64,000 nt of DNA, taken from the NCBI GenBank assembly GCA_030739855.1, contig JASLYJ010000005.1, forward strand, positions 181 to 64,180. The letters are read 5' to 3'. The position numbers were made by a program, and so were the translations under genes. A model generated the notes under the pieces. It was given only the letters and a program-made list of their open reading frames with translations, was not told where the DNA came from and searched no databases. This stretch comes from Alphaproteobacteria bacterium (GTDB lineage: Bacteria; Pseudomonadota; Alphaproteobacteria; UBA11136). Positions 30,099 to 56,218 of the stretch are shown one piece after another. Numbering within the stretch: the first letter of the stretch is position 1; each line of letters opens with the position of its first letter.

Positions 30099-30178
30099 CC
30101 CCCACGAAAAGGACACTTTCCCCGTGTTTTCCCTTGAGGCACATGCGGACCATACGTAGGGTGCCAACGCGGTTATAA

Positions 30179-31078
30179 ATGACCGGAAACGGGAGAGGAA
30201 CGCCTCCAGGGATGAACGATATTGCCAAGAATACGACAGACGATATCGACGCTCGCGAGCATGTTGGTGAGATAGTCAAAGCCTCCGGTACGTCATTTTA
30301 TTGGGGCATGCGCATTCTCTCCCCGGAAAGACGCAATGGTATGTTCGCCGTATACGCCTTTTGCCGTGAAGTGGACGACATTGCCGACAGCGATGAATCC
30401 GAGGCGGAAAAGCTAATGCAGCTTACCCTATGGCGCGGGGAGATTGACTGCCTGTTTGCGGGCAGGCCCAACTATCCCACTGCCCGTGCGCTGCTCGAAC
30501 CGGTCAGGGAATTCAATCTCCGTAAACTGGATTTTCTCGCCGTCATTGACGGCATGGAAATGGACGCACGAGAACAAATGCGTGGTCCGGAAATGAAAAA
30601 TTTTGAACTTTACTGCGCCCGTGTAGCGGGCGCCGTAGGCCTTCTTTCCACCCGTGTCTTCGGGGATGCCAGCCCCCGCGCCAAGGATCACGCCCTGGCC
30701 TTGGGATGTGCTCTTCAGACCACCAACATCCTGCGGGACCTATATGAAGACGCGGCGCGGGGACGTCTTTACCTGCCCAAGGAAATGCTTCTCGCCCACG
30801 GTATTACAGATATAGATCCCCGCATGGTTCTTCGTCATCCTTCCATCGGGGGGGTGTGCGCCGATCTAGCAGAGCTCGCCCAGGAACGTTTTAGTGAGGC
30901 AGCAACGGCCCTTGAGGATTGTGACAAGGAGGCCTTGCGGCCCGCCCGCATCATGGGCGCCATGTATCGTGGTATCCTCACGCGACTCATCAAAAGAGGA
31001 TGGGAAAGGCTCGATGAGCCCGTGCGCGTACCAAAACTGGAAAAGTTTTGGATCACCCTACGCTACGGCCTGGTTTAA
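30179..31078 (+). CDS. hpnD: Squalene/phytoene synthase family protein, HpnD-type (presqualene diphosphate synthase)
   Basis: YAFCREVDDIADS and NILRDLYEDAARGRLYLP Asp-rich motifs. Assigned by synteny. Confidence 0.8.
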   Translation: MTGNGRGTPPGMNDIAKNTTDDIDAREHVGEIVKASGTSFYWGMRILSPERRNGMFAVYAFCREVDDIADSDESEAEKLMQLTLWRGEIDCLFAGRPNYPTARALLEPVREFNLRKLDFLAVIDGMEMDAREQMRGPEMKNFELYCARVAGAVGLLSTRVFGDASPRAKDHALALGCALQTTNILRDLYEDAARGRLYLPKEMLLAHGITDIDPRMVLRHPSIGGVCADLAELAQERFSEAATALEDCDKEALRPARIMGAMYRGILTRLIKRGWERLDEPVRVPKLEKFWITLRYGLV

Positions 31079-31082
31079 TCCC

Positions 31083-32429
31083 GTGACCTCCGTCCCTACG
31101 CCAGAGAGACTCCACAATCCCGAAGAGGGCTCCGTCCACATCATCGGCGGTGGCCTTTCCGGTCTGGCTAGTGCCGTACGGCTAGTCCAAGCCGGCTGCC
31201 AGCCCGTAATCTACGAATCTACAGACCACGCCGGCGGGCGGTGCCGCTCCCTGTTCGAACCCACGCTTAACCGTCTCATCGACAACGGAAATCATCTCCT
31301 ACTCAGCGGCAACCACGCCACCATGGACTATCTCAAGATCATTGGCGCCCGTGAAGAACTGGCTGTAGCGCCACGTGCAGTTTATACCTTCGTCGACATC
31401 CGTGATGGCAAACGATGGTCCGTAAGGCCCAATAGAGGACGTTTCCCTTGGTGGGTATTGTCAGAATCGAGGCGTGTGCCGGATTCCCGGCCCTGGGATT
31501 ATTTTGCCGCCCTGGGTCTTTCCCGGGTGAAACATGGAAAGACCGTGGCAGAATATTTCGATACAGACCGGAAAATTTTCGAACGATTCTGGGAACCCCT
31601 GACCGTTGCCGTGCTTAACGCCGGCGCCCACGAGGGCGCCGCCTGTTTACTGTGGCCGGTGATCCAACTGACCTTCGGCAAGGGCGAAGCCGCCTGCCGG
31701 CCTTGCTTTCCCTGCCAGGGACTATCTGGAACCTTTGTTGATCCGGCACTAGCTTGGCTTTCCGTAAACGGTGCCGAAGTGAATTTCCAGCATCGGATAC
31801 GCGGCTTCAAGAGACGTTCGGACACAAACGGAAGTACCATAACGGAACTCGACTTTGCCAATGCTTCAATTCCCATTTTGAACAAGGATCGTGTGATTCT
31901 GGCGGTTCCCCCCGATTCCGCGTCTTCCCTGCTTCCCGATATACCTGTTCCCAGCAATAGCCGCGCCATCGTCAATGTACACTTTCTGCTACCTCACCCT
32001 CCTCCCGAAGATGCTCGGAAAACTCGCCTCATGGGTATTATCGGCGGACACGCGCAATGGCTTTTTTTGCGGGAAGATGTCGCTTCGGCAACAGTCAGTG
32101 CCGCTGATAAAGTGGCGTTGGAACAAGCAGAAACTATCGCGCAACGTATCTGGCCCGAAGTCGTCAGCGCTCTAGGTATGGGTAAAGAGAGCCCCTTATC
32201 TCCCTACCGCGTTATTAAGGAAAAACGCGGCACCTTTGCGCAAATACCCGACCAGCTTCCCCTCAGGGCAAAAACAAGGACAGCCTACAATAATCTTTTC
32301 CTAGCAGGCGATTGGACGGATACCGGCCTTCCAGCCACCATCGAAGGGGCCGTAAAGTCGGGATTTGCCGCCGCCGAGGCCGTTTTGGAAGATAAGGAGA
32401 AAAGCAGGAGGAATGGTCTCTGGCCTTGA
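31083..32429 (+). CDS. hpnE: FAD-dependent hydroxysqualene dehydroxylase (amine oxidase family)
   Basis: Dinucleotide fold VHIIGGGLSGLASAVRL near the N-terminus. The start is placed at GTG 31083, just after the hpnD stop. The tracked ORF from 30894 would overlap hpnD by 185 nt. Confidence 0.75.
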   Translation: MTSVPTPERLHNPEEGSVHIIGGGLSGLASAVRLVQAGCQPVIYESTDHAGGRCRSLFEPTLNRLIDNGNHLLLSGNHATMDYLKIIGAREELAVAPRAVYTFVDIRDGKRWSVRPNRGRFPWWVLSESRRVPDSRPWDYFAALGLSRVKHGKTVAEYFDTDRKIFERFWEPLTVAVLNAGAHEGAACLLWPVIQLTFGKGEAACRPCFPCQGLSGTFVDPALAWLSVNGAEVNFQHRIRGFKRRSDTNGSTITELDFANASIPILNKDRVILAVPPDSASSLLPDIPVPSNSRAIVNVHFLLPHPPPEDARKTRLMGIIGGHAQWLFLREDVASATVSAADKVALEQAETIAQRIWPEVVSALGMGKESPLSPYRVIKEKRGTFAQIPDQLPLRAKTRTAYNNLFLAGDWTDTGLPATIEGAVKSGFAAAEAVLEDKEKSRRNGLWP

Positions 32430-32487
32430 CAACCCTTTTTTTGTCAAGATACCTCCCTCGTTCCACGTGACGGAACATGGCCGATTC

Positions 32488-34428
32488 ATGCTGAACAAGC
32501 TCAATAATTCTAAAGACGATCATCTTAAGGCCGTTGAGTCGGTCATTGAGGATGCGTGGCAAGCGCTGAAAGAAACACAACATGAAGACGGGCACTGGGC
32601 CTTCAAGCTCGAGGCAGACGCCACCATCCCTGCGGAATATATCCTGCTCAACCACTTCATCGGAGAAGTAGAGGAGGATATTGAGGCTAAGCTCGCCAAT
32701 TACATCCGTTCGATTCAGTGCGATGACGGAGGATGGCCCCTGTTCCATGCCGGAGACATGGATGTGAGCTGCAGTGTAAAGGCTTATTACGCCCTGAAAA
32801 TCGTCGGCGACGACATCAACGCCCCACATATGAAAAAAACGCGCGCGGCTATTCTCGCCCACGGTGGCGCGGCAAAAAGCAATGTCTTCACCCGTATCTC
32901 ACTTTGCCTGTTCGGCGAAATACCCTGGCGTGCGGTTCCAGTCATGCCGGTTGAAATCATGCTGTTGCCAACCTGGTCTCCTTTCCATCTGAGCAAAGTC
33001 TCCTATTGGTCGCGGACCGTAATCGTTCCTCTGCTTGTGCTCATGGCCCTGAAGCCAAAAGCGGTTAACCCCAATAACGTCAGCGTGCGGGAATTGTTTG
33101 TCACTCCACCTGAAGAACATCGCCGCTATATAACCAATCCGACGGGGGGGGTTTGGGGTGAGGTTTTCCTGGCTATAGACAAGGTTCTTCACGTTATTGA
33201 GCCGTTCTTCCCTAAGGCATTCCACAAGCGGGCCATAGACGCGGCCACCCAATGGTTTACCGAACGCCTGAACGGTGAAGATGGCCTAGGTGCAATCTTT
33301 CCGGCCATGACCAATGCCGTCATGGCCTATCACGCCCTGGGCTACCCAAAAGGCCATCCCGATTTTGCCGTCGCTAAAAAGGCCATACACAAGCTTCTCT
33401 ACCTGGAGGAGGACCAAGGATTCTGCCGACCCTGCACGTCCCCGGTATGGGATACAGGTCTTGCAGCACAAGCCCTGATGGTGGCCGGCGAACCCCATAA
33501 CGGCCCGTGTATCCGCAAGGCCATGGATTGGCTTGTTGATCGGCAAATACTCGATGCAAAGGGTGACTGGGCCAGTGACCGGCCCAGTCTCCGCCCCGGG
33601 GGCTGGGCCTTCCAGTATTGGAATGACTATTACCCGGATGTGGACGATACGGCAGTCGTGATCATGGCACTCGACCGCAGTGGCCGCCACCATTACCAAC
33701 CAGCCATTACCCGCGCCACCGAATGGACCATCGGCATGCAAAACCAGAACGGTGGCTGGGGCGCCTTCGATGCTGACGGCACAAGTTACTATTTGAACCA
33801 CATCCCCTTCGCTGATCACGGAGCGCTTCTTGACCCCCCAACTGCGGATGTGTCGGCCCGCTGCGTCAGTATGCTGGCCCAGCTGGGACACAAGGAAACC
33901 CATCCGGCCTTTTCCCTGGGACTCGAGTATTTAAGGAAAACCCAAGAAGATGATGGCTCTTGGTTCGGCCGCTGGGGAATCAACTATATCTACGGCACAT
34001 GGTCCGTCTTAAGCGCCTTTAATGCCGCAGGCGAGGATATGGATACCCCCCATATCCGCAAGGCCGTGGACTGGCTTAAATCCCGTCAGCGTAACGATGG
34101 TGGATGGGGCGAGGATGGCGCCACCTATTGGCTGGAACGCAAGGAAGAAGTTAAGGAAAGCACCCCCTCTCAAACCGCCTGGGCGGTGCTAGGGCTTATG
34201 GCGGCAGGCGAGGTGCGAAGCAACACCGTGAGACACGGCATCGACTATCTTCTTGCCTCTCCCAGAAGCGGTGCTCGCTGGGACGAAAATCTCTTTACCG
34301 CCGTCGGATTTCCAAGGGTCTTTTATCTGCGCTATCACGGATACGCGAAGTATTTCCCCCTCTGGGCGCTGTCCAGATATCGCAATTTATTGCGGGGAAA
34401 CGCCAAAACCGTACCCTACGGAATGTGA
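32488..34428 (+). CDS. shc: Squalene-hopene cyclase
   Basis: Catalytic DxDD motif (YPDVDDTAVV) and multiple QW repeats (Q..DGGW). The start is either ATG 32488 or ATG 32413. Confidence 0.92.
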   Translation: MLNKLNNSKDDHLKAVESVIEDAWQALKETQHEDGHWAFKLEADATIPAEYILLNHFIGEVEEDIEAKLANYIRSIQCDDGGWPLFHAGDMDVSCSVKAYYALKIVGDDINAPHMKKTRAAILAHGGAAKSNVFTRISLCLFGEIPWRAVPVMPVEIMLLPTWSPFHLSKVSYWSRTVIVPLLVLMALKPKAVNPNNVSVRELFVTPPEEHRRYITNPTGGVWGEVFLAIDKVLHVIEPFFPKAFHKRAIDAATQWFTERLNGEDGLGAIFPAMTNAVMAYHALGYPKGHPDFAVAKKAIHKLLYLEEDQGFCRPCTSPVWDTGLAAQALMVAGEPHNGPCIRKAMDWLVDRQILDAKGDWASDRPSLRPGGWAFQYWNDYYPDVDDTAVVIMALDRSGRHHYQPAITRATEWTIGMQNQNGGWGAFDADGTSYYLNHIPFADHGALLDPPTADVSARCVSMLAQLGHKETHPAFSLGLEYLRKTQEDDGSWFGRWGINYIYGTWSVLSAFNAAGEDMDTPHIRKAVDWLKSRQRNDGGWGEDGATYWLERKEEVKESTPSQTAWAVLGLMAAGEVRSNTVRHGIDYLLASPRSGARWDENLFTAVGFPRVFYLRYHGYAKYFPLWALSRYRNLLRGNAKTVPYGM

Positions 34429-35099
34429 CTTTTACCCCACCAGATAGACCCGGTTTCGTAACCGGCCTCATGGCAGAGGCCGCACATCTTGAAAACATCT
34501 CCTTTTCCACCTTCTGTTCTGGAGGCCACCCACGACGCGCAACAGAAGGCGCCCAACAAATGGTTGATTCTGGCGCTACGGGGCTGGTGAGCTTTGGTAT
34601 CGGCGGTGGATTGGATCCTTCCCTACACCCTGGGTCTCTAGTTGTGGCCACCATGGTCATTACGCCGGAAGGGGACAAAATAAGAACTGATTCCGCCTGG
34701 CAAAATCATATTCAGAAACTAACCCCCGGCCCGTTGGTCATTGCCGGGATAGCCGGCAGCGATCATGCCATTACATCACCCCGAGCTAAGAGCGACCTCT
34801 TCGCCGCAACTGGGGCCGCCGCCGTAGATATGGAAAGTCATGCCGTGGCTAGGGTGGCTACCAAAACGGGAGTGCCATTCCTGGCCCTGCGGGCTATAGC
34901 CGACCCCGCGTGCAGGACCGTACCAGTCTCCGCCATGGGCGGCCTCAGCCCGGATGGTCACACTCGCATCCTGGCTGCACTAGGAAATTTATTGCTTCAT
35001 CCTTGGGAATTGCCCGACCTGCTTCGACTGGCGCTGGATACACAAAAAGGACTGCGCTCTTTACGCCGCGTCGCAGATAGTAGCTTTTCTTCCTCCTGA
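34425..35099 (+). CDS. hpnG: Hopanoid-associated phosphorylase/nucleosidase (PNP_UDP family), HpnG-type
   Basis: GLVSFGIGGGL and VDMESHAVA motifs of the nucleoside phosphorylase fold. The GTG start overlaps the shc stop. Confidence 0.75.
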   Translation: MTFTPPDRPGFVTGLMAEAAHLENISFSTFCSGGHPRRATEGAQQMVDSGATGLVSFGIGGGLDPSLHPGSLVVATMVITPEGDKIRTDSAWQNHIQKLTPGPLVIAGIAGSDHAITSPRAKSDLFAATGAAAVDMESHAVARVATKTGVPFLALRAIADPACRTVPVSAMGGLSPDGHTRILAALGNLLLHPWELPDLLRLALDTQKGLRSLRRVADSSFSSS

Positions 35100-37214: not shown

Positions 37215-37438
37215 AGGATTTTTTCCATGATCACGACTTAAACAATGGCAACGTGCTTCATAACACGTTGGGAGACCTGCCACAAATCCCTCTGCCATAA
37301 GGATATAAACGGATTTAATTTTCATATGGCGCCGCAAAAGAAAAGAGACAATGCAATTCTGATATCTATATTTTCTTCCCCTTACGCCCGAATGAAGGCC
37401 CGGAAGCTATATATGGACGAAGCCCTGTGTCATAACCT

Positions 37439-38542
37439 GTGCCATGGGAAAATTCCCCGGTACGCATTGATAACAATATCCGCTACCCATTCTGGAAACC
37501 CGTGGTGAAGAATCTTAAATTTCTCTATTTGCTCGTTGGTCTTGTCCTGCTCGCTCTCGTCCTTGCCCATACCGATCTCAGCCAATTATGGGACCAGACC
37601 GTGCGGGTGGGATGGGGAATAGGGGTAATCCTCACCCTCTATCTTATTGCCTTCGTCCTTGATTCCGTTTCCTGGCAACTGGCCCTGCTTCCCTTAAATT
37701 TCGATTCGCTAACCATTTGTAGGGTTTGGAAAATCCGCATGGTCGGCGAAGCTGTAAATAACGCGACGCCGCTGGCCACAATAGGCGGCGAACCGGTTAA
37801 GGCCGTCTTGCTTAAAAAGAATTTCGGCACGGGCTACCGCGAGGGCACGGCCTCGCTCATTATCGCCAAGACCACGAATCTTCTGGCCTTGATCGCGTTT
37901 CTTGCCACCGGATTCGGCCTCATGCTTGTAACCGAAGTGCTGCCGCCCTTCTATAACTTCGTGGCCGGGGCCGGGCTTATCACCTTCACAGCAGGCATCG
38001 TCCTGCTTTTCCTGGTACAGCGTTACAAAATCTCCTCTCTCGCTGGAACCTGGATGGCACAAACGCGGCTTGGACGTTTCCTGGAGAACCTTCTCCATCA
38101 CATCCACGACATGGAAGACCGGCTGATTCATTTCTACACCCGTCATCGCTTGCGTTTCCTGCTGGCGCTTGTTCTGGCCTTCGTCAACTGGGTGATCGGC
38201 GCTCTGGAACTGTATGTCACGCTGCTTTTCCTCGGCCACCCGGTGACCTTCGGCGAAGCCTGGATCATCGAGGCCATCGCCCAGCTGGTACGTAGCGGCG
38301 CCTTTTTCATTCCGGGAGCCCTTGGTATCCAAGAAGGGGCTTTCATGATCGTCATCGAAGCCATGACGGGGCGGGGCGTGCTGGGTCTGGCCGTGGCCAT
38401 GATACGCAGGTTCCGAGAAATCGTCTGGATTACGTGGGGCATGTTGTTGGGTGGATTTTCTTCCTTTTCACCGCAAATGGCCGAGGAGGTCTCCCCGGAA
38501 GTGTCTGGAGAGCCTGCCTCCCCACGAAAACCCCGGACATGA
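37439..38542 (+). CDS. Flippase-like/UPF0104 (lysyl-PG synthase transmembrane region family) membrane protein, HpnL-like
   Basis: Polytopic membrane protein with about 8 transmembrane segments and the IGGEPVKAVLLKK motif typical of this family. The start is uncertain. Its stop forms an ATGA overlap with the next gene. Confidence 0.6.
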   Translation: MPWENSPVRIDNNIRYPFWKPVVKNLKFLYLLVGLVLLALVLAHTDLSQLWDQTVRVGWGIGVILTLYLIAFVLDSVSWQLALLPLNFDSLTICRVWKIRMVGEAVNNATPLATIGGEPVKAVLLKKNFGTGYREGTASLIIAKTTNLLALIAFLATGFGLMLVTEVLPPFYNFVAGAGLITFTAGIVLLFLVQRYKISSLAGTWMAQTRLGRFLENLLHHIHDMEDRLIHFYTRHRLRFLLALVLAFVNWVIGALELYVTLLFLGHPVTFGEAWIIEAIAQLVRSGAFFIPGALGIQEGAFMIVIEAMTGRGVLGLAVAMIRRFREIVWITWGMLLGGFSSFSPQMAEEVSPEVSGEPASPRKPRT

Positions 38543-39141
38543 AACAGGTGCCCCCCTGGGATCAGAGACTGGCCAGAATCATGGTCCGCCCCCTGGCCCG
38601 CACGCCCATCACCCCCAATCAGGTGACAATCTTTACCCTTGTGCTGGCGCTGGCCGCCACCGCCCTGTTCGCGGTGGGGGACAAAACGGCGGCCAACTGG
38701 GCGGCGGGGCTATTCATCCTGGCCCGCTTCATGGATCATTTTGATGGTGAACTGGCCAGGATGACGGGCAAAGCATCCCGTCTCGGCTACTATCTCGACT
38801 ATGTGGCCGGGGGCTTGAGTTACGGCGGACTGTTTCTCGGCATCGGCATCGGGGTGCGGGAGTCCTTCCTCGGCGAATGGGCCATTATTCTGGGGCTGGC
38901 CGCGGCTGGCGGCGCCGTAATCTCCATGTTCCTCAATCTGCACATCGACAAGCAGAACCAACTCAAGGAAGGTAAGACCGTCGGATATCCTAGATTTGCG
39001 GGATTCGAACTGGAGGACGGCATCTATCTGATCGGGCCCATAACCTGGGCCGGATTCCTGACGCCGTTTTTCGCCCTCAGCGTGGCTGGCGCGGTAATCT
39101 ATACGCTGTGGACCCTCGCTACAGTCCTGCGCGGCAAATAG
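38539..39141 (+). CDS. CDP-alcohol phosphatidyltransferase-like membrane protein, paralog 1 (divergent signature)
   Basis: 200 aa, about 6 transmembrane segments. The signature reads DHFDGELAR-x8-G-x3-D-x3-G, so the last Asp of D-x2-DG-x2-AR-x8-G-x3-D-x3-D is replaced by Gly. Confidence 0.65.
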   Translation: MKQVPPWDQRLARIMVRPLARTPITPNQVTIFTLVLALAATALFAVGDKTAANWAAGLFILARFMDHFDGELARMTGKASRLGYYLDYVAGGLSYGGLFLGIGIGVRESFLGEWAIILGLAAAGGAVISMFLNLHIDKQNQLKEGKTVGYPRFAGFELEDGIYLIGPITWAGFLTPFFALSVAGAVIYTLWTLATVLRGK

Positions 39142-40121
39142 CCGTTGCGACAGAACCAATCCACGGCGTCACTGAGGGCTTCCACCGCAGGACGTGGCAC
39201 GTAATCCAGTTCGCGCCGGGCCTTTTCAATAGAAAAAAACATATGTTTTTTCGACAGTTTAAGCGCATCCACGGTGATCATCGGCTCCGGGCCGCCTCGC
39301 AGCCTGGCAAAGGCCTCCGTTATATAGGCGATGGGGAGGATCAGATTGTGGGGAAGGTTGATGAAAGGCGGGCGGCGCCGGGTGAGGCGGGCGATCTCAG
39401 CTAGCACCTGACGTAGAGTGAGGTTCTCAGCGCCAAGAATATAGCGCTCCCCCACCTGCCCCTTTTCATAGGCCAACACGTGCCCCTTTGCCACGTCGTC
39501 CACATGTACAAAATTAAGACCAGTATCCACGAAGGCAGGCATTTTCCCGGCGGCGGCCTGAACGATCATCTTGCCAGTGGGGGTGGGCTTGATATCGCGC
39601 GGACCGATAGGGGCGGCGGGATTAACGATCACCGCAGGCAGAGAGTCTTCGGCGATGAGGCGCCTAACTTCCTCCTCGGCCAGAAATTTTGAGCGTTTGT
39701 AATCCCCGATCATATCCTTCAAGGATACGACTGTGTCTTCATCGGAGGGCGTGCCGTCTGCGTTAAGCCCCAAGGTTGCCACGCTGCTAGTATAGACGAT
39801 GCGTTTTACTCCAACCTCACTAGCAACCTCCATGATATTGCGGGTACCGCGAACGTTTGACTCGTAGATTTCCTCTGGGTTCGACGCCCAGAGCCGGTAA
39901 TCGGCGGCCACATGAAACAGGGCGTCGCACCCAGCCAGGGCCTTGACCAGGGAATTACGGTTGGACAAATCACCAATGGCGATTTCAACTTTCTGTCCTG
40001 TCAGGTTGCGACGATCGCTGGTGGGGCGCAGCAGCGCCTTCACCTCGTGTCCGGCTTGCACCGCTTCACGCAGTACGGCTGAGCCGACGAATCCCGATGC
40101 TCCGGTCACAAGCGTGGTCAT
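39099..40121 (-). CDS. hpnA: NAD-dependent epimerase/dehydratase/reductase (extended SDR), HpnA-like hopanoid-associated enzyme
   Basis: VTGASGFVGSAV Rossmann motif and the YKRSK catalytic motif. 340 aa. The start ATG at 40121 forms an ATGA overlap with the upstream gene's stop. Confidence 0.75.
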   Translation of the reverse strand: MTTLVTGASGFVGSAVLREAVQAGHEVKALLRPTSDRRNLTGQKVEIAIGDLSNRNSLVKALAGCDALFHVAADYRLWASNPEEIYESNVRGTRNIMEVASEVGVKRIVYTSSVATLGLNADGTPSDEDTVVSLKDMIGDYKRSKFLAEEEVRRLIAEDSLPAVIVNPAAPIGPRDIKPTPTGKMIVQAAAGKMPAFVDTGLNFVHVDDVAKGHVLAYEKGQVGERYILGAENLTLRQVLAEIARLTRRRPPFINLPHNLILPIAYITEAFARLRGGPEPMITVDALKLSKKHMFFSIEKARRELDYVPRPAVEALSDAVDWFCRNGYLPRRTVARVHSV

Positions 40122-40738
40122 GGTTGGCCTTGCCCTTTTGAACTCTGCACGCATTTCCAGATCACCCACAGCAGGAACAAGGGTGCGCCGATCCCGGCAG
40201 CCACAAGAAAGAGGGGGTCATAACCCAGCCAGGTAACCGGGCCGATGATATAAAGGGTATCTTCTGGCTCAAACCCGGCAATACTGCGCTGCTTGACAGC
40301 TTCCACGCCTTCCCGGACTTCGATCCACATCCGCACGCTCATGGTCGCCACCACTGCGAGACTGGCCGCCACGCCCAATGGCACCGCCCAATCCCCCAAC
40401 GGTCCGTGACGCAAGCCAATTCCCATCCCCACGAACAAAGAAACGTAGCTGACGGCCACTGCTACGTGATCGTAATAATGACCGAAAGTGCTGGTCTTAT
40501 TCACCAGACGCGCAAGTTCCCCGTCGGCATGGTCCATGAAGGCGGCAAACATGAATACCCCGGCGGCCCAGTTTGCAAGGACTAGATCTCCCTGAGCGAA
40601 GAGGCATCCCGCCAACAGCCCCATCATCAAACCCAGGGTGGTAACAGCGTTGGGATGGATGGAGGTATGAGCCAGCAACCCAGCCAGGATGCGAGCTAGA
40701 CGCTGGTCCCAAGCAATATTTTCCAAGGGATTACTCAT
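40118..40738 (-). CDS. CDP-alcohol phosphatidyltransferase-like membrane protein, paralog 2 (divergent signature)
   Basis: 206 aa. The signature reads DHADGELAR-x8-G-x3-D-x3-V. It is clearly paralogous to 38539-39141 (shared WDQRLARI, ANWAAG, FMDH.DGELAR, AGFE.ED..Y.IGP.TW). Both ends have ATGA overlaps. Confidence 0.65.
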   Translation of the reverse strand: MSNPLENIAWDQRLARILAGLLAHTSIHPNAVTTLGLMMGLLAGCLFAQGDLVLANWAAGVFMFAAFMDHADGELARLVNKTSTFGHYYDHVAVAVSYVSLFVGMGIGLRHGPLGDWAVPLGVAASLAVVATMSVRMWIEVREGVEAVKQRSIAGFEPEDTLYIIGPVTWLGYDPLFLVAAGIGAPLFLLWVIWKCVQSSKGQGQP

Positions 40739-41484
40739 GCTTCCGGATCCTTCAGCTGGGGAAGAATTTCTTCCCGAGCACGCTCCACGTCTTCTGGAAA
40801 GTCGATCTCGATCCAAGGAAGGTCCGTCACGTCTTCAAACCCAAAGGTCCCGGAGGGACACTCTACAACAAGGTCCCGAATAGCCTCTTCGTACCATTCC
40901 TCCCCTCTTCCCTCATCCACGTAGGCCTGGGTCCTACTGGCAAGACGCCTCGCGATACCCGGCGAAAAACGGAAAAACCCGACAGACTCCCCGCAAAAGT
41001 CGTAGGTGCTTGCGATCTTCTTGTGGAAATCGACAATCTTACCGTCCCTAATACAAAGCTTCACCGGCTCGTCCCCGGCCTCAAAATCGCGGTCTATGAG
41101 GAAGCAGTTAGCGTTCCCTGAATCCCGCAGGCGCTCGATCATGCGAAAATCACTAAGTACATCGGCATCCATAAGAAGAATTTCATCACCACAACGAAGA
41201 ACGTTCTGGGCCGTCCACAAGGAAAGAATACTGCCCAATCGAAAATCCGGGTTCATGAGGGTGCGCACAAAACCTTCTGCTTTTTGGAGAGACACCGCCT
41301 CCTCTAAGATCTCGGCGTTGTACCCGGTAACGACAACAACTTCCTCCAACCCGCAATGATGTAAAATTTTCAGATGCCGGGAAAGAAGCGTCCTCTCTGC
41401 AAAACGCAGCATGGCCTTTGGCGGATGGTCCTCTCCCAAGCCCAACCGAGCGCCAACGCCAGCTGCAAGGATAATCGCCCTCAT
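40735..41484 (-). CDS. LicC/MobA-like nucleotidyltransferase (cytidylyl/nucleotidyl transfer to a phospho- or phosphono-alcohol)
   Basis: MRAIILAAGVGARLG nucleotide-binding signature. 249 aa. The start is 2 nt after the hpnN stop. Confidence 0.7.
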   Translation of the reverse strand: MRAIILAAGVGARLGLGEDHPPKAMLRFAERTLLSRHLKILHHCGLEEVVVVTGYNAEILEEAVSLQKAEGFVRTLMNPDFRLGSILSLWTAQNVLRCGDEILLMDADVLSDFRMIERLRDSGNANCFLIDRDFEAGDEPVKLCIRDGKIVDFHKKIASTYDFCGESVGFFRFSPGIARRLASRTQAYVDEGRGEEWYEEAIRDLVVECPSGTFGFEDVTDLPWIEIDFPEDVERAREEILPQLKDPEA

Positions 41485-41486
41485 GT

Positions 41487-44183
41487 TCAACCTCTCCCGG
41501 TGCGGGGGAAATAGTGCTCCCGGCAAACCAAAAGGCAAGGCAGAGCTACCAGCGTACACACTAAGGCAAAGGTCAGGGAAATGGCCAAAAGCTGGCCCAT
41601 GCTTGCGGTGCCTAAATGGCTTGAAATGGCCAGAGTGCCGAACGAACACATGGTGGTAAGCGCACTGAAAAGAATGGCCCGTGGCGTATTGGTGGTCATG
41701 ACATCGGCGATAGAATCTGCACTGCGTTCACGCAAAACGAGGTAGATACCGTAGGCAACGCCGAGGCTGAGCAACAGCGGTATCGCGATAATGTTGGCGA
41801 AGTTGAAGGGAATGCCGAAAATCACGGAGCTTGAGGCCGTAAACACTGCGGCCAAAGTTAATGGCAACAGGACAAGAAGCGTATCAATTACACTTCGCAG
41901 CACGATCAAGAGAAGAACAGTGATAGCGACCAGGGATAGAAACCCGGCCTGTTTGAAGGCTGTTGTGACGGCGGCCCCCCCTTCCAGTAAAATAACCGGA
42001 TCTTCGGTGGCGTTGGGAGCCACCTTGCGTATGGCGGTCACGAATCGTCGCAGGGCGTCATTGCTGGTCAGAGCTTCGGAGGGAAAGACCTCCACCAGGG
42101 TGCGGCCATCGGCGGTGATTTTTCGTTGGCGCAAAAGTTCCGGTAGGTCCTCAGCCGCGACCTCCCGGGCATTTAAGGACTGTTGCAGCTTTTCCAGCCG
42201 CTTGGGCAGGGAGGACAACAGCAGCATTTCCAGGTCTTCCAGCGATTGTCCGTTCTCGTGGCTCGATTCTTCGAACCGCGTCAGAGCATTGATCAGCCGT
42301 CTGGCGGGCGCGTCGAGAATGCTCACTAGGGATGTGTCAATGAGGTGTTCCAGGTTTTTCTTTAATTCGGAAACCACCTTTTTGCGCCCATTATTGTCCA
42401 GTGGCCTGTCCAATGGGGAAGCGTCGAGAATGGGAAAAAGGAACAGCGCCATGTCGTCAACCATGAAGAGTTTCTCTTCCTGGTCCTGCGGCACAAAATC
42501 AGCCAAGCTCACCGTGTGATCAACCTGCGGCAAGGCCTCCAGCCTTTGGACAAGGTTTTGCGCCTCCTCCACATTATCGGCGAGAATCTGGATGGTATAA
42601 AAAGACGTTTTGCTGTCCTTCATTAAATCGAGCGCCGTCTGCACGGATTCCGTGGTGGGGTCTTTTAGGTTCATAGGATCGAAATCGAATTGCAGCCGTG
42701 GCAGGAATGCTACGGCAGCGGCAACCCCCAACACCAGCGCCCAAAAGGAAATGCTTTCGGCATGCTCCAGCAGGAACCCAGGCGCCGGGTTTGGTCCCCA
42801 CTTTATTTTTCGCCACCCTTTCCAAGCCGGGAGCAGGCCCTCCCCGTGTTTAAGTGACATTACGGTCAGACAGGCCGGCAGGACCGTAAGATTGGCTAAC
42901 AAAGCGATCATCATGCTGCCGCCGGAAATAATTCCCAGTTCCGACAAGCCAAGATAGTCCGTGGGCACAAACGAGAAAAATCCAATGGCCGCGGCAATAG
43001 CAGCTAGTGTCAACGCGCCGCCGACCCCCGTAGCCGATTCGCGAAGTGCCTCCTCGTGGGACTGGCCGCGATCTACAGCCTCGCGGTAGCGAAGGCAGAA
43101 CTGGATTCCAAAATCCACTCCGATCCCGATAAACAGAACGCCAAAGGCCACGGAAATAAGATTGAGCTGTCCTACGGCGAAGGTGGCGTATCCCCCCGTC
43201 CACATGAGCCCCATAACTAATGTGATCAGAGTCGCCGCGGCAAGACGCAACGAGCCCAGGCCTATGGTCACTAACACGCCCACAAGTATAAGGGCCAGGG
43301 CGACCGCAGCACTTGCCCCTTCGGTGACACTCACCATTTCTTCTTGACTCAGGACCGTGCCACCTGTCAACCGCACCTGCACCCCGTGTTCGGAATCGAG
43401 ATGAAGCGCTCTGGCCGCCGCACGGATGATTTTTACCGCCTGTCTAGCGGGCTGCAGAGAAGATTTGTCAAGTTTTGGTTGCACCAGGATAAAGCGGCGA
43501 AGATCATCTTGTTCCACCTCACCACCCATCATCATCTTGCGCCACGACATGGGACGCGGATTGCCTTCCTGTTGTTTCTCAATAGTTTCGGAAATGTTAT
43601 GAAAAATTCTAACCAGGCGTGAAGGGTCTTCATCGCCCTTGGTCACTTCGTCTATGGCCTCGTTGAGCACGTCGAAAAAACCACGAAGGTTCATATCTCC
43701 TGCCAAGGCTGCCAGCAGAGGTTGGGCATCGGCCAGGCGGTTGGAAAGATCGGCCAACTCGTCTTCGTCCAGGAACAGCAGGCCGTTGGTGATAAAAAAG
43801 GGATTGCTTGCCGGGTCGAAAACGAATTTGAATTCCTCGGTTTCTGTCTTGAGCCGCGCCGCCAGTGCTGCGGTGGCATCCTCCGTTATGTCCGGGGTTT
43901 CGCCTTCCACGACGATGGTGATGTTGTTCCTGAGATTGGGAAAGGCGCGCCTGTATTCGTCGTAAATCTTGCGGAAGGGGAGATCTGAGGACAGCATGTC
44001 CGACGTGGAGGTGTTGATTCTAAGATGCTCCACCGTATAGAACAGCGACATACCGGCGACCGAAGCCGCCACAAGAAGAATTGGGACCGCGGCTTTTCTC
44101 GCAGCATCTACCCAGCACGCAAGAAACCGCAGGTAAGTGTCTCCGAACGCCTTGATCACGCCATAATCCTCATGGAGAAACAC
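41487..44183 (-). CDS. hpnN: Hopanoid transporter, RND/MMPL superfamily, HpnN-type
   Basis: 898 aa with two blocks of 6 transmembrane segments and large periplasmic loops. The N-terminal RINTSTSDMLSSDLPF region is typical of HpnN. GTG start. Confidence 0.85.
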   Translation of the reverse strand: MFLHEDYGVIKAFGDTYLRFLACWVDAARKAAVPILLVAASVAGMSLFYTVEHLRINTSTSDMLSSDLPFRKIYDEYRRAFPNLRNNITIVVEGETPDITEDATAALAARLKTETEEFKFVFDPASNPFFITNGLLFLDEDELADLSNRLADAQPLLAALAGDMNLRGFFDVLNEAIDEVTKGDEDPSRLVRIFHNISETIEKQQEGNPRPMSWRKMMMGGEVEQDDLRRFILVQPKLDKSSLQPARQAVKIIRAAARALHLDSEHGVQVRLTGGTVLSQEEMVSVTEGASAAVALALILVGVLVTIGLGSLRLAAATLITLVMGLMWTGGYATFAVGQLNLISVAFGVLFIGIGVDFGIQFCLRYREAVDRGQSHEEALRESATGVGGALTLAAIAAAIGFFSFVPTDYLGLSELGIISGGSMMIALLANLTVLPACLTVMSLKHGEGLLPAWKGWRKIKWGPNPAPGFLLEHAESISFWALVLGVAAAVAFLPRLQFDFDPMNLKDPTTESVQTALDLMKDSKTSFYTIQILADNVEEAQNLVQRLEALPQVDHTVSLADFVPQDQEEKLFMVDDMALFLFPILDASPLDRPLDNNGRKKVVSELKKNLEHLIDTSLVSILDAPARRLINALTRFEESSHENGQSLEDLEMLLLSSLPKRLEKLQQSLNAREVAAEDLPELLRQRKITADGRTLVEVFPSEALTSNDALRRFVTAIRKVAPNATEDPVILLEGGAAVTTAFKQAGFLSLVAITVLLLIVLRSVIDTLLVLLPLTLAAVFTASSSVIFGIPFNFANIIAIPLLLSLGVAYGIYLVLRERSADSIADVMTTNTPRAILFSALTTMCSFGTLAISSHLGTASMGQLLAISLTFALVCTLVALPCLLVCREHYFPRTGRG

Positions 44184-44280
44184 TTGGTTACACCCAAGAT
44201 TTCAAAAATTCGTGGTATGATCACGCAGTCGTTAATTACCAAAATAGAAGAAATTGTCATAGTCCAAAGAAGGAGTTGAG

Positions 44281-44916
44281 ATGGCGCGTTATCGCCTGAC
44301 AAGCCGATTGGCCATTGTAATCACCTTTGGTTTAAGCGTGCTTATAACGTCTCCGGCCAATGCCGAGCAAGGGCCAGCCCGTCCTATCGTTGAACGCTTT
44401 CATGACACGCTGCTCTTCGTCATGAAGGAAGCAGAGAACCTTGGCTACGAAGGCCGCTTTGAGCGGCTGACCCCGGCTATAAGGGAGAGTTTTAACCTAT
44501 CCTTTATGACCAGCCGTTCGACCGGTTATCACTGGAAGAGGGCTTCCAACGAAGAACACCAGGATCTGATCGACGCCTTTACCAATATGACAATCGCTAA
44601 CTACGCATCACGTTTTGACGGATATTCCGGGGAAATATTTGAAACCGTCGCAGTCAAGGAAGGACCAAGAGATTCTATCATCGTTAAAACCAGGATCGTA
44701 AAGAATGATGGCGAAAAAATCGCCCTGAACTACATGATGCGGGAATTTGGCGGTAAATGGCAGGTTATCGACATCTTTCTTAAAGGCACCTTCAGCGAAC
44801 TGGCCACGCGAAAGTCTGAGTATTCCTCCCTGATACGCGACGGTGGCTTTCCGAAGCTTATCGCCAGCATGAAGAAAAAAACGGAAAAAATCAGGAATAA
44901 GACACTAACTCCCTAA
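44281..44916 (+). CDS. hpnM: MlaC/Ttg2D-like periplasmic lipid-binding protein, HpnM-type
   Basis: 211 aa with a signal peptide (AIVITFGLSVLITSPANA). Family pattern ...W.V.D....G.S...T.R.E. Divergent from hpnN. Confidence 0.7.
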   Translation: MARYRLTSRLAIVITFGLSVLITSPANAEQGPARPIVERFHDTLLFVMKEAENLGYEGRFERLTPAIRESFNLSFMTSRSTGYHWKRASNEEHQDLIDAFTNMTIANYASRFDGYSGEIFETVAVKEGPRDSIIVKTRIVKNDGEKIALNYMMREFGGKWQVIDIFLKGTFSELATRKSEYSSLIRDGGFPKLIASMKKKTEKIRNKTLTP

Positions 44917-45007
44917 CAACACCGCGTGGAACAAAATATGCCGTCTTCGTCACATCCGTATATAATTGCCGAAAGCCTTCGGGAAGGATGACGCAGGCTG
45001 GCAGAAT

Positions 45008-45021
45008 ATGCTGTACAGCAT
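45008..45021. promoter_or_regulatory. Perfect 14-bp palindrome ATGCTGTACAGCAT, 22 nt upstream of the pepM start
   Basis: Read directly from the sequence. It lies immediately upstream of the RBS-like AAGGAACGGAG. Confidence 0.3.
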
Positions 45022-45042
45022 TGTAAGGAACGGAGCGCCGAC

Positions 45043-46707
45043 ATGACAACGGCCGCCAAACCAGCACTTAGTGTCGCCCCAACGCCCCTGTCAAAAGCGG
45101 CGCAGCTGCGCCGTGAACTGACCTCGCCAGAGCTTTCCTTCCTCATGGAAGCTCATAACGGCCTGTCCGCAAAAATCGTCGAAGAAGCCGGCTTCCGCGG
45201 CATTTGGGCATCGGGCCTTTCCGTCTCGGCCACCCTTGGCGTCAGGGACAGCAACGAAGCGTCCTGGACACAAGTGCTTGAAGTCCTGGAGTTCATGTCC
45301 GATGCCACCACCATCCCCGTCCTCGTGGACGGTGATACGGGCTATGGCAACTTCAATAATCTGCGGCGGCTAGTCAAGAAACTGTGCCAGTACAACATCG
45401 CCGGGGTCTGTATCGAAGACAAGCTTTTCCCCAAGACAAACTCTTTTATCGGCGAGGCGCAGCCATTGGCCAACATCGAGGAATTCTGTGGCAAGATCAA
45501 GGCCGGGAAAGACAGCCAGCTTGATGACGATTTTTCGCTCATCGCCCGTATCGAGGCATTGGTAGCAGGATGGGGGATTGACGAGGCTCTGCACCGGGCC
45601 GAGGCCTATCACGCCGCTGGCGCCGATGCCATATTAATTCATTCCAAGCTTTCCACCGCCGACGAGATTCTAGCCTTCAAACATGACTGGGGCGAGAGGT
45701 GCCCAGTGGTGATCGTGCCCACCATGTATTACGAAACTCCCACCGAAGCCTTCAGAACGGCCGGTATCTCCATGGTGATCTGGGCCAACCATAATCTTCG
45801 CGCTTCCATCTCAGCCATGCGTGATGTGTGCCGGAAAATCTGTGAGGAACAGAGGCTGGTGGATATCGAGGATAAAATTACAAGTGTGCAGGATGTATTC
45901 GAACTTGTGGGCAATCAGGAGCTGGCCGAAGCCGAAAGGCGCTATCTAACCTCTACGGAGAAGAAAACCCACGGCATAGTAATCGCGGCCTCCAGGGGTA
46001 GGAAGCTGGGCGACCTTACGGCAGATCAGCCGAAATGCATGGTGGATATCCGTGGTAAACCGCTACTGAGGCGTCTGATCTCGACCATGAAAAAGGGCGG
46101 CGTGCGTGACATCATGGTGGTACGTGGCTACAAGAAGGAAAAGATCAACCTTCCTTCAATCACCACCGTAGACAACGATTCCTACAACACTACGAACGAG
46201 GCCTATTCCCTTTCTTGTGCTCTTCAGCATATTGAGGGCGACTGTGTCTTCAGCTATGGGGACATCCTGTTCCGCCGTTCCATCCTTGATGCCCTCCTAG
46301 CTGCATCGGCCGATATCGTCCTTGCTGTGGATGCCCGTGGACATGGCTTCGATTTCCATGATGTGGAGCGCAAGGTAGACCTGGTGAGCTGCACCCGCTC
46401 CTTCAGCGGCGATTATTTTGAGGAGACCCCCCCCGTCTCAGTGGTGAAAATTGGCAATGACCTACCCAGTGACGACGTCCACGGCGAATGGATAGGCCTG
46501 GCCCGCACCAGCGCCCGCGGCTCCAAGATCATCCAGGAGCAACTCGGCACCATGAAAAAGGACGGATGTCTGGAGACCTCCACCATGCTGGATCTTTTTT
46601 CGAACATCCTCGAGGCTGGACACCATGTGGAAGCCTTGTATGTAGCCGGCCATTGGCTAGACGTAGACGACGCCTTTGATCTCGCCAAGGCGCGGAACTT
46701 CACCTAA
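45043..46707 (+). CDS. pepM: Phosphoenolpyruvate phosphomutase fused to a C-terminal LicC-like nucleotidyltransferase (PntC-type phosphonate cytidylyltransferase)
   Basis: The N-terminal ~290 aa carry the PepM signature [12 protein letters not shown] (EDK-x5-NS) and DGDTGYGN. The C-terminal ~250 aa carry [14 protein letters not shown] and the nucleotidyltransferase fold. Confidence 0.9.
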
Positions 46708-46749
46708 TCCATTTCTTAAACTTTTCCCCATCCAGCTTTTCCCCGCCCC

Positions 46750-47889
46750 ATGATTCCGGCCAGTGAATTTATCAACTCAGCCAAGGGTATCGGTTACGAC
46801 TTCTATACCGGAGTTCCCTGTTCCTTTCTGACTCCTATCCTCAATGGCGTCATCAGTGACCGGAGGCTCGATTATGTGGGTGCGGCCAGCGAGGGCGAGG
46901 CTGTGGCCATCGCTGCTGGGGCGTGGCTAGCGACCCGTAAGACGGTTGTCATGTGCCAGAATTCAGGCCTCGGCAATGCCGTCAACCCCTTGACCTCTCT
47001 CAACCATCCTTTCCGCATCCCCACCCTCTTCATAACTACCTGGCGGGGCCAGCCGGGGTTACAGGACGAACCACAGCACGAGGTCATGGGGCAAATCACC
47101 GACAGGCTGCTTGAGACCATAGCCATACCCCATGACCTATTCCCCGATGAAAGCGACCTTATTTCTCCAGCGCTGGAAAAAGCTGACGCCGTTATGGAGA
47201 AAACATCCCTACCTTTCGCCTTTATCATGAAAAAGGGCAGCCTGCGCGATGATGTACTCCACCAAGCACCGCTCCCCTCCCGGCCGCCGGGAGAGTATTC
47301 TTGCCTTCTAGAAAACGTGGACCGCCCCTCCCGGCAACAGGTCTTGGAGCGTTTTCTGGGATTGGTGCCGGACAAGGCTGCCGTCATCGCCACCACAGGT
47401 AAATGTGGACGCGAGCTTTTCACGCTCAATGACCGAGTACAGCATCTCTACCAAGTAGGATCCATGGGCTGCGCTGCCGGCATGGGACTGGGCGTGGCCC
47501 TGAATACATCCCGGTCCGTGGTGGTTCTCGACGGCGATGGTGCATCACTGATGAAGATGGGTACACTCGCCACCATCGGCGCCTATGCGCCCCCCGGACT
47601 GGTGCACATTATTCTCGATAACGGTGTTCACGATTCCACGGGTGGCCAGGCCACGGTCTCGAAACACGTAGATTTTGCCCAAGTGGCGTTAGCCTGCGGC
47701 TACGCCCGCGCTGCGTCTTGTGACTCCCTTGAGGGGTTCGAACGAGCGTTGGTGAACGCTTCCAACGGCGGGGGGCCAAACCTCATCCATATGCGAATTA
47801 TACCAGGCTCCATGTCGCCGCTGGGCCGGCCCGCAGTGAAGCCTTGCGAGGTGGCTCGCCGGTTTAAGGAGTTTCTTTCCAAGGACTAA
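46750..47889 (+). CDS. ppd: Phosphonopyruvate decarboxylase (ThDP-dependent)
   Basis: 379 aa. FYTGVPCSFL at the N-terminus and the ThDP motif VLDGDGASLM...LDNG. Confidence 0.88.
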   Translation: MIPASEFINSAKGIGYDFYTGVPCSFLTPILNGVISDRRLDYVGAASEGEAVAIAAGAWLATRKTVVMCQNSGLGNAVNPLTSLNHPFRIPTLFITTWRGQPGLQDEPQHEVMGQITDRLLETIAIPHDLFPDESDLISPALEKADAVMEKTSLPFAFIMKKGSLRDDVLHQAPLPSRPPGEYSCLLENVDRPSRQQVLERFLGLVPDKAAVIATTGKCGRELFTLNDRVQHLYQVGSMGCAAGMGLGVALNTSRSVVVLDGDGASLMKMGTLATIGAYAPPGLVHIILDNGVHDSTGGQATVSKHVDFAQVALACGYARAASCDSLEGFERALVNASNGGGPNLIHMRIIPGSMSPLGRPAVKPCEVARRFKEFLSKD

Positions 47890-48998
47890 TGGGAGATGCC
47901 CATTTCCTTCAGAGATGCCCCCACGGCTCCGATGAGGCCGTGTATCTCCTCACTCCCCACCTGGCCGATACAACCAATGCGGAAGGAATCTACCTTGGTT
48001 AGCTTGCCGGGATAGATGACGTAGCCACGGTCACGAAGACGATCGTAAAAAGGGGTGAACTGAAAGTTCGAATCCTGCGGCGTGTGGAAGGTAACGATAA
48101 TCGGCGCCTGCATGGTATCTGGCAGCAGGGTCTCGAAACCAAGCTCCCGCATGCCTTCCACCAGAATTCGGTGGTTTTCCGCATATCGTGCGCCCCTGCC
48201 CGCGACCCCGCCCTCTTCGGCGTGCTGCGCGATGGCGGCATCAAGGGCGGCTATCACATGTACCGGCGGCGTAAAGCGCCATTGGCCGGTTTCCGTCATG
48301 GCCCGCCACTGGTCTTCAAGATCGAGGCAGAGGGAATGGGCGTTTCCGGCCGATTCCCGCAGAGCTTGTTTGCTGGTGATGACGAATCCCAGCCCCGGCA
48401 CACCTTCCAGACATTTGCTGCTGGACGCTATCACCGCCTCGCAGGGCATGGCTTTTACGTCCAGCGGCAAGGCCCCGAAAGAACTCATGGCGTCTATCAG
48501 AAGGCGGCGGCCGCCTTTGGCGACGGCCCGTGCAATATCTTCTAAGGGGTTGAGGATGCCGCTGGTGGTTTCGCAATGCACGGCAGCCACATGAGTGATG
48601 GCAGAATCGCTTTTGAGCTTGGCCTCCAGTGCCTTCACATCCGTGGGTTCATCCTCGGCGTTTTCAAGAACCTCATGGCTACGGCCCAGCACGGCGCAGA
48701 TCCTAGCCATGCGCGCCCCATAGGCGCCATTGACCAGAACCAGCACCTTGCCCTTGGCCGGGACCAAGGTGCCGATGGCTGCTTCCACGGCGAAGGTGCC
48801 GCTGCCTTGAACGGGTACGCAGGCGTATCCGCCTTCCCCGCCAACTAGGGCCACAAGACGCTGACAGACGCGGTTGTTTATTTCCAGAAAAGCCTCATCG
48901 CGGGAACCGCGATCGCGCAGCATCGCTTCGCGTGTCTCGCGCGCCGTTGTCAGGGGGCCCGGCGTCAGAAGCCAGGGATCGTTTTGGTCACCGGTCAT
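47886..48998 (-). CDS. phnW: 2-aminoethylphosphonate:pyruvate aminotransferase (class V)
   Basis: LLTPGPLTT at the N-terminus and the PLP lysine context SSSKCLEGVPG. Convergent with ppd, overlapping it by 4 nt. The start is placed at ATG 48998. Confidence 0.85.
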   Translation of the reverse strand: MTGDQNDPWLLTPGPLTTARETREAMLRDRGSRDEAFLEINNRVCQRLVALVGGEGGYACVPVQGSGTFAVEAAIGTLVPAKGKVLVLVNGAYGARMARICAVLGRSHEVLENAEDEPTDVKALEAKLKSDSAITHVAAVHCETTSGILNPLEDIARAVAKGGRRLLIDAMSSFGALPLDVKAMPCEAVIASSSKCLEGVPGLGFVITSKQALRESAGNAHSLCLDLEDQWRAMTETGQWRFTPPVHVIAALDAAIAQHAEEGGVAGRGARYAENHRILVEGMRELGFETLLPDTMQAPIIVTFHTPQDSNFQFTPFYDRLRDRGYVIYPGKLTKVDSFRIGCIGQVGSEEIHGLIGAVGASLKEMGISH

Positions 48999-51117: not shown

Positions 51118-51249
51118 ATCAATCCCGGAATCTCTTTGGCGAGAGGAGCTGATGGCGTCCCGTCCGCCAGATTCCGATGAGTCTTGCTGGGCCTGATCAC
51201 GCCTTCGTGCGATAGAAAAATTAAAAAGCAGAGGAAAAAGAGCAGAGGA

Positions 51250-53299: not shown

Positions 53300-53324
53300 C
53301 AAAAACCAGGAAAGATCAGATTTC

Positions 53325-55236: not shown

Positions 55237-55245
55237 GGATATTTT

Positions 55246-56124: not shown

Positions 56125-56218
56125 GAGAAATTGAGGCGTGATTATGTGTACTGTGAGCATAATTGTGCTCGAGAACGTTTAATAACAAACGTATCTACTT
56201 AAGGGGAGGATATCCTTC

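Follow-up and report, generated by a model that had tools for sequence, protein, structure and literature searches.

In a 64,000-nucleotide stretch of contig JASLYJ010000005.1 from an uncultured, Rhodospirillaceae-like marine alphaproteobacterium (the window) a gene cluster for the synthesis and export of hopanoids has a variant 'Group 1 / CDP-OH' phosphonolipid cassette built into it. The 'Group 1 phosphonolipid' family of Yu et al. (2013) corresponds to the 'Burkholderiales_CDP-OH' ppm family of Li & Horsman (2022), accounts for 36% of the ppm neighbourhoods in RefSeq and has as its predicted product a lipid of 1-hydroxy-2-aminoethylphosphonate that has never been isolated and is conventionally assumed to be a phosphonolipid of the glycerolipid type (PMC8942020). 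The gene content of the window indicates that a lipid bearing 2-aminoethylphosphonate (AEP) is most likely made, flipped by an HpnL-like membrane protein and exported by HpnN and HpnM. Gene linkage further points to a hopanoid polyol as the acceptor of the AEP group, which we regard as a real possibility of slightly less than even likelihood.

The genes, their coordinates and their stop/start junctions had been described in an earlier note made from the sequence alone, and all proved correct when examined with Pfam, NCBIfam and the open reading frame (ORF) coordinates and translations (Table 1). By family the hpnC-hpnD-hpnE-shc-hpnG genes provide for the making of squalene and its cyclisation to hopene, and also for the side-chain phosphorylase. 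The stop codon of the hpnL-like gene and the start codon of PT1, one of two genes encoding relatives of the CDP-alcohol phosphotransferases (hereafter PTs), have an ATGA in common (38539-38542). On the opposite strand the stop codon of hpnN (41487-41489) is separated by 2 nt from the start codon (41482-41484) of a free-standing nucleotidyltransferase (NT), which overlaps the second PT gene (PT2) by ATGA at 40735-40738, and PT2 in turn overlaps hpnA in the same way at 40118-40121. The gap between hpnM and the fused pepM gene is 126 nt and a terminator scan found no terminator-like site in it. The short-chain dehydrogenase/reductase previously labelled hpnA-like was rightly placed in this family but is a true HpnA by its score, while HpnN passes the TIGR03480 cut-off and falls under that of the newer equivalog NF052374 (746 vs 1100 bits). 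No match to hpnI/J/K/O/P/R/B was present among window ORFs of at least 180 aa, in agreement with what had been noted for hpnI/J/K/O/P, and the known side-chain tailoring genes were thus not found in the window.

PepM, Ppd and the aminotransferase are predicted to make AEP, and on family membership the assignment of AEP synthesis and of its activation with CMP is strong. The free NT aligned over its full length to the structure of Treponema denticola PntC (6pd1, E 2e-6), with LicC and IPCT also matching, and the domain fused to PepM was closest to LicC (1jyk), so that both are assigned by sequence to the class of small phospho(no)alcohol cytidylyltransferases. The free NT was present in every AEP-containing locus of the comparative set described below, i.e. 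two cytidylyltransferases per AEP locus. Searches by tblastn with HalD-like and PhyH-type queries from related loci found no 2-oxoglutarate (2OG)/Fe(II) oxygenase in the 64-kb window, and plain AEP rather than 1-hydroxy-AEP is therefore the expected product. A PhyH-family dioxygenase occurs in alpha- and gammaproteobacterial PT loci (L018, L027, L035, L036, L037, L039, L046, L047, L054, L056 and L066), where it takes the place of the HalD-like oxygenase of Burkholderiales; the window has neither.

PT1 and PT2 are paralogues with 46% identity that match PF01066 at 48.4 and 52.5 bits respectively, against a Pfam gathering score of 22, and PT2 has the same sequence as HJO89006.1 and MDP6031198.1. 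An AlphaFold2 model of PT2 (predicted local distance difference test 89.6, predicted template-modelling score 0.85) matched AF2299 in Foldseek at a TM-score of 0.77 and phosphatidylinositol-phosphate (PIP) synthases at 0.55-0.69, and on this model PT2 is confidently predicted to adopt the all-helical membrane fold of the solved CDP-alcohol phosphotransferases. We rejected the possibility that the PTs are housekeeping phospholipid synthases, as they lie outside the PgsA, PssA, PIPS, ClsA and other curated housekeeping clades with scores far under every NCBIfam equivalog cut-off (pgsA 30/109, pssA 23/107, PIPSynth 42/170, archaetidylinositol-P synthase 58/180 and ClsA 25/240 bits) and possess an extra motif of their own, a C-terminal GFExED that is near-invariant across the 103 family members here. 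Placement in such a clade had been named in the earlier note as a refutation. The earlier description of both proteins as PT-like is upheld by the PF01066 match and, for PT2, by the fold, but the family signature D1xxD2GxxAR...GxxxD3xxxD4 is incomplete in both, with D4 replaced by Gly in PT1 and by Val in PT2.

None of the 103 PT-family sequences departs from D1, D2, G, A, R, G2 or D3. The loss of D4 covaries with the residue directly after D3 (D3+1), three residues earlier, which becomes His or Tyr. An Asp at D4 is retained in 48 members, 45 of which have Leu or Arg at D3+1; these represent the type of the Burkholderiales cassette and have hopanoid genes nearby in 16 of the 48. A second type (n=23) has Ala, Val, Ser, Cys or Met at D4 with His at D3+1 in 21, is mostly adjacent to an NT and accompanies hopanoid genes in 19 of 23. 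The third (n=32) has Gly at D4 with Tyr, Phe or His at D3+1 in 24, lies mostly next to HpnA, usually shares its locus with a second PT (19 of 32) and accompanies hopanoid genes in 25 of 32. The window contains one His type (PT2) and one Gly/Tyr type (PT1) and no Asp type, and we suggest that the His or Tyr at D3+1 may take over as general base from the same face of the helix. The D4-less PTs might alternatively not be transferases at all but non-catalytic partners of HpnL or HpnN, or nucleotide-binding regulators, with AEP passed to a glycan or released via enzymes encoded elsewhere. The replaced fourth Asp, the absence of any Asp-type PT from the window and the habitual pairing of the Gly type with a second PT are in keeping with this reading; however, the invariant residues together with the retained GFExED motif argue for a metal/nucleotide site under selection, the covariation at D3+1 suggests a substitute base, and Pfam, NCBIfam and ORF profile searches found no LicD-type or glycosyl-transfer gene in the window. 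We consider it very improbable.

The membrane protein coupled to PT1 scored 160.9 bits with the HpnL model TIGR03476, below the cut-off of 195.65, and the label 'HpnL-like' given to it previously is apt. Together with one gammaproteobacterial copy, also at about 160 bits, it forms a divergent sister group of HpnL, and its orthologues in PT-containing loci are 42-55% identical to it. The LPG-synthase-TM protein of AEP operons passes the same cut-off in Ralstonia pickettii (341.6 bits) and Roseomonas (259.6 bits). Of the 32 loci whose flanks were long enough in a metagenome scan centred on HpnL, 14 had a PT within 2.5 kb, and many HpnL-like genes of 40% identity had no PT partner, so that the pairing is frequent and not universal. 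A different transferase accompanies HpnL in soil metagenomes: at locus L158 (4228-9732; also L119, L135, L147, L159 and L141) an AF2299-like two-domain CDP-alcohol phosphotransferase of 412 aa, with the canonical fourth Asp and no GFExED motif, is divergent from HpnL-MlaA-HpnN | HpnM-HpnA-HpnG, with a class-III (HpnO-like) aminotransferase and a Gfo/Idh/MocA oxidoreductase upstream of it. Since these soil loci carry the AF2299-like type, HpnL is paired with CDP-OH transferases of two separate subfamilies, and it seems habitually to work with an enzyme of the CDP-alcohol-transferase type in a manner resembling the synthase/flippase logic of MprF.

The association was followed across 80 species-representative genome loci found with a PT-family profile, onto which the window proteins were mapped by tblastn (naive ORF clustering was dropped owing to antisense artefacts in high-GC genomes). 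A free NT was present in 54 of the 80 loci, an HpnL-type gene in 50, hopanoid genes in 38, AEP genes in 20 and both hopanoid and AEP genes in 10. These last ten belong to Alphaproteobacteria (L004, L005, L027, L035, L037, L047), Gammaproteobacteria (L036, L058, L061) and Betaproteobacteria (L076, R. pickettii), and their gene order differs. Chance adjacency was rejected as an explanation, given that the layout recurs in three proteobacterial classes with the genes shuffled. Same-strand adjacency within 150 nt was recorded 23 times for PT followed by HpnA, 21 times for NT followed by PT, 23 times for HpnL followed by NT and 11 times for NT followed by PepM. The layout of the window is reproduced in L084 (11626-12917), whose PT is 56% identical; an HpnL-type gene is absent there and a third PT paralogue stands in its place. 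Two cultured bacteria from the plasmid collection provide further examples. Plasmid p1318-3 of Roseomonas marmotae carries hpnA, a glycosyltransferase gene (GT), hpnCDE, shc and hpnG, then hpnH-ispH, then a PT, then the AEP transaminase (AEPT)-HpnL-aepY-aepX genes, then an NT and, further on, MMPL-VacJ. On pBRH01 of Mycetohabitans rhizoxinica (NC_014718.1, ~589-612 kb; L090, L171), a genetically tractable fungal endosymbiont, a canonical Group 1 operon directly adjoins an entire hopanoid cluster in the order dxs, hpnN, MlaC-like gene, ispH, hpnH, hpnA, GT, hpnG, shc, hpnD. Co-occurrence of the PT-like and NT genes with hopanoid genes and pepM, which the earlier note had proposed as a check, is thus seen in related and distant genomes alike.

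Hopanoid-associated PTs also occur apart from AEP genes, which is relevant to the idea that two head-group systems share the locus. Under this idea NT, PT2 and HpnA would add a non-phosphonate group to the hopanoid side chain, either phosphatidyl donated by CDP-diacylglycerol or a phospho-alcohol that the free NT has activated, and the HpnL-like protein and PT1 together with PepM::PntC, Ppd and AEPT would place AEP on a different acceptor. Many hopanoid clusters contain NT-PT-HpnA with no AEP genes within 10 kb (L007, L010, L011, L016, L018, L029), a PT-HpnL-HpnN-HpnA operon stands alone in L001 and a bare PT-PT-HpnA operon in L086 (10001-12245), both with no NT or AEP genes nearby, and four loci (L027, L035, L037, L047) have a PT1-type gene head-to-head with an Asp-type PT directly beside Ppd. 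Fifteen Paraburkholderia loci (L055, L059, L060, L064, L065, L070, L071, L073, L075, L078-L083) retain only PT, HalD-like 2OG oxygenase, HpnL and NT, with no PepM/Ppd or hopanoid genes within 10 kb. On the other hand, AEP genes may sit elsewhere in the genomes with hopanoid-only PT loci, the free NT accompanies AEP genes wherever these occur in the set, and a neighbour-joining tree of 200-aa proteins is too weak for firm orthology. A division into two systems appears improbable to us. The PT-PT-HpnA operon of L086 is divergent from a gene encoding an acyl-ACP synthetase/acyltransferase fusion.

For the single pathway that we favour, family assignments suggest that AEP is activated as CMP-AEP by the domain fused to PepM, by the free 249-aa enzyme or by both. 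One or both of the membrane PTs would then place the aminoethylphosphonyl group on the hydroxyl of a lipid at the cytoplasmic side of the membrane. Flipping of the zwitterionic product would fall to the HpnL-like protein, HpnL being related to the flippase domain of MprF, and HpnN and HpnM would carry the product to the outer membrane. The favoured acceptor is an extended hopanoid, bacteriohopanetetrol (BHT), which would be formed by HpnH and HpnG and possibly HpnA, and going by gene linkage the product would be BHT-35-O-aminoethylphosphonate. The mass computed for this proposed compound (BHT-AEP, C37H68NO6P) is 654.4857 for [M+H]+ and 652.4711 for [M-H]-. The chain from AEP through CMP-AEP and PT to HpnN/HpnM, as set out in the earlier note, fits the gene families and their order, although nothing in the sequence marks the acceptor as a hopanoid. 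We favour a hopanoid because a PT is translationally coupled to HpnA and HpnN, because the flippase-like partner has HpnL identity, because the two D4-less PT types present here are those most linked to hopanoid genes (19/23 and 25/32 vs 16/48), and because no other side-chain tailoring gene was found in the window.

Several findings weigh against a hopanoid acceptor. Neither hopanoid nor AEP genes were found within 10 kb in 32 of the 80 PT loci, 15 of these being the Paraburkholderia loci, and in Burkholderia cenocepacia, B. multivorans and Cupriavidus sp. P-10 there are no hopanoid genes within 20 kb of the cassette. The PT/NT pair need not use AEP, because NT-PT-HpnA is found in hopanoid clusters lacking nearby AEP genes. 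The fourth Asp is regarded as the catalytic base in the solved members, and the chemistry of the two window PTs, which lack it, may differ from the textbook reaction. Transfer from CMP-AEP in eukaryotes has diacylglycerol (DAG) as its acceptor. Our literature search found no report of a phosphorus-bearing hopanoid, and none is mentioned in a 2025 survey of alphaproteobacterial hopanoids (PMC12583986).

The last two of these points, the separation of the cassette from hopanoid genes in Burkholderia and Cupriavidus and the presence of CDP-DAG- and DAG-using enzymes among the solved structures closest to the PT fold are also in line with a different product, diacylglyceryl-AEP, the C-P analogue of phosphatidylethanolamine. 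Such a glycerolipid, which is what the phosphonate literature assumes, would be co-regulated and perhaps co-exported with hopanoids and not chemically joined to them, both systems serving to remodel the outer membrane. However, ppm is expressed in Burkholderia and yet no such lipid has been found there (PMC8942020), the PT is translationally coupled to HpnA/HpnN and not to glycerolipid genes, the flippase-like partner belongs to a family defined by its hopanoid linkage, and that linkage recurs in shuffled order in three proteobacterial classes. We judge a glycerolipid product to be somewhat unlikely. Attachment of AEP by the D4-less PTs to the terminal hydroxyl of BHT would yield a phosphono-hopanoid, a new class of lipid that would be flipped by HpnL and exported by HpnN/HpnM, and by extension the product of Group 1 would itself be hopanoid-based; we put this full proposal forward tentatively, as one that falls clearly short of an even chance.

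The locus ties together three questions, namely the product of the commonest family of bacterial phosphonate clusters, the function of HpnL and the function of HpnA, and thereby joins the phosphonate and hopanoid literatures. Were the acceptor a hopanoid there would be a new lipid class and with it a new biomarker, hopanoid-producing Alphaproteobacteria would be linked to the production of phosphonates in the sea, where AEP is the chief biogenic one, and HpnL and perhaps HpnA would gain functions. Whatever the acceptor, the presumed catalytic Asp has been replaced in a large clade of CDP-alcohol-transferase relatives. The existence of cultured carriers (R. marmotae, M. rhizoxinica, R. pickettii and Burkholderia) and of a defined target mass makes the question directly testable.

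The cluster is flanked by unrelated genes, with housekeeping and sulfate assimilation functions upstream and one-carbon (C1) genes linked to tetrahydromethanopterin (H4MPT) downstream (Table 1). The putative porin gene lies directly upstream of hpnC, and the C1-transfer genes directly follow the lipid cluster. A homologue of the small HExxH ORF adjoins the AEP transaminase gene in the related locus L004.

Table 1. Genes of the hopanoid-phosphonate cluster, followed by other features of the window. Scores are in bits.
Feature	Position	Strand	Family evidence
hpnC-hpnD-hpnE-shc-hpnG	29190..35099	+	NCBIfam, all above cut-off: HpnC 253, HpnD 323, HpnE 372, Shc 790, HpnG 215
hpnH (adenosyl-hopene transferase)	35061-36221	-	NCBIfam 566, above cut-off
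ispH	36252-37337	-	NCBIfam 464, above cut-off
HpnL-like membrane protein (LPG_synthase_TM / flippase-like domain)	37439..38542	+	PF03706 98; TIGR00374 flippase-like 56
PT1, CDP-alcohol-phosphotransferase-like, Gly/Tyr type, 200 aa	38539..39141	+	PF01066; motif DHFDGELAR..GYYLDYVAG
HpnA, hopanoid-associated extended short-chain dehydrogenase/reductase	39099..40121	-	TIGR03466 488 vs cut-off 368
PT2, CDP-alcohol-phosphotransferase-like, His type, 206 aa	40118..40738	-	PF01066; motif DHADGELAR..GHYYDHVAV
Free-standing NT, 249 aa, PntC/LicC/IPCT-class cytidylyltransferase type	40735..41484	-	NTP_transf_3 (Pfam and NCBIfam)
HpnN, RND/MMPL-family hopanoid transporter	41487..44183	-	TIGR03480 987 vs cut-off 752
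HpnM, periplasmic MlaC-like lipid carrier	44281..44916	+	TIGR03481 197 vs cut-off 160; PF05494
Phosphoenolpyruvate mutase (PepM) fused to LicC/PntC-type cytidylyltransferase domain	45043..46707	+	TIGR02320 394 vs cut-off 320; NTP_transf_3 at residues 311-434
Ppd/AepY, phosphonopyruvate decarboxylase	46750..47889	+	TIGR03297 426 vs cut-off 313
AEP:pyruvate aminotransferase (AEPT/PhnW), convergent with ppd	47886..48998	-	NF010006 549; TIGR03301 480
649-aa ORF adjoining XerD-type recombinase gene	3650-5599	-	no NCBIfam match at E<=1e-15
Ordinary assimilatory sulfate reduction operon: cysNC fusion, cysD, cysH, sulfite/nitrite reductase-like hemoprotein	20788-26490	-	
TorF-family putative porin	27911-28672	-	
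161-aa ORF with HExxH motif (HELVHALQHE)	49205-49690	-	no Pfam/NCBIfam match
H4MPT-linked C1-transfer cluster: Mpt_N-domain dehydrogenase, mch, MptN-like glutamate ligase, CitG-like, 4-HFC-P synthase-like and dihydropteroate-synthase-like genes	50062-62386		

The phosphonate gene set of the window has already been catalogued and its linkage to terpene genes has been flagged before, and the locus is a further variant. Squalene synthase and cyclase genes in the ppm neighbourhoods of Nitrosococcus (gene cluster family 731) were said to 'hint at a possible phosphonoterpene' (PMC8942020), the Nitrosococcus oceani genome paper contains only an antiSMASH 'phosphonate-terpene' call (PMC7285500), and a survey of acidophilic Acetobacteraceae has a similar one-line remark (PMC8776678). 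As in the window, ppm, ppd and aminotransferase genes in these clusters adjoin squalene synthase and cyclase, and the speculation is the same; the reports are one-sentence remarks at the antiSMASH level that give no mechanism or compound and do not identify the PT, NT, HpnL, HpnA or HpnN/M linkage. The novelty claimed earlier for the phosphonate-hopanoid idea must therefore be qualified, in that no phosphorus-bearing hopanoid has been reported but the idea itself has precedents. Plasmid p1318-3 of R. marmotae is a concrete phosphonate-terpene case that shares its parts with the window. In the hopanoid literature of 2025 HpnL and HpnA are still of unknown function and neither CDP-alcohol transferases nor phosphonates are mentioned (PMC12324291, PMC12583986), and our literature search found no publication that connects the hopanoid and phosphonate sides.

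Among systems with solved structures the archaeal IPCT/DIPPS and AF2299 proteins (PDB 4mnd, 4o6m) resemble the window in pairing a cytidylyltransferase with a six-helix CDP-alcohol phosphotransferase, and IPCT is the best NCBIfam match of the free NT just as AF2299 is the protein that the PT matches best in fold and profile. Here, however, the two are separate polypeptides that reach 67 and 30 bits where the equivalog cut-off is 580, the PTs lack the fourth Asp and there is no inositol-phosphate synthase. Membership of an IPCT/DIPPS-like inositol-phosphate system was rejected, with scores at 10-20% of cut-off and AEP genes as the neighbours. In MprF an enzyme that adds a head group is joined to an LPG_synthase_TM flippase domain which exposes an amine-bearing lipid on the outer leaflet, and a PT with an HpnL-type partner would represent this logic split over two proteins; unlike MprF the window has no aminoacyl-tRNA-dependent synthase domain, and the predicted chemistry is phospho(no)transfer.

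The closest known relative is the Group 1 operon of Burkholderiales, whose seven-gene core begins with the PT and continues with the 2OG/Fe(II) oxygenase, LPG-synthase-TM, NT, PepM::NT, Ppd and AEPT. The window shares with it the Ppm-cytidylyltransferase fusion, Ppd and AEP transaminase, all above their equivalog cut-offs, as well as the second free cytidylyltransferase, the CDP-OH transferase and the LPG-synthase-TM gene, with identities of 63-72% for PepM, 47-50% for NT and 42-48% for PT. The variations specific to the window are the absence of the oxygenase that belongs to the Group 1 core, the presence of two PTs without the fourth Asp that the Burkholderiales PT keeps, an HpnL-type protein of the divergent sister group and the interleaving with hpnA, hpnN and hpnM of genes that in Group 1 form one operon.

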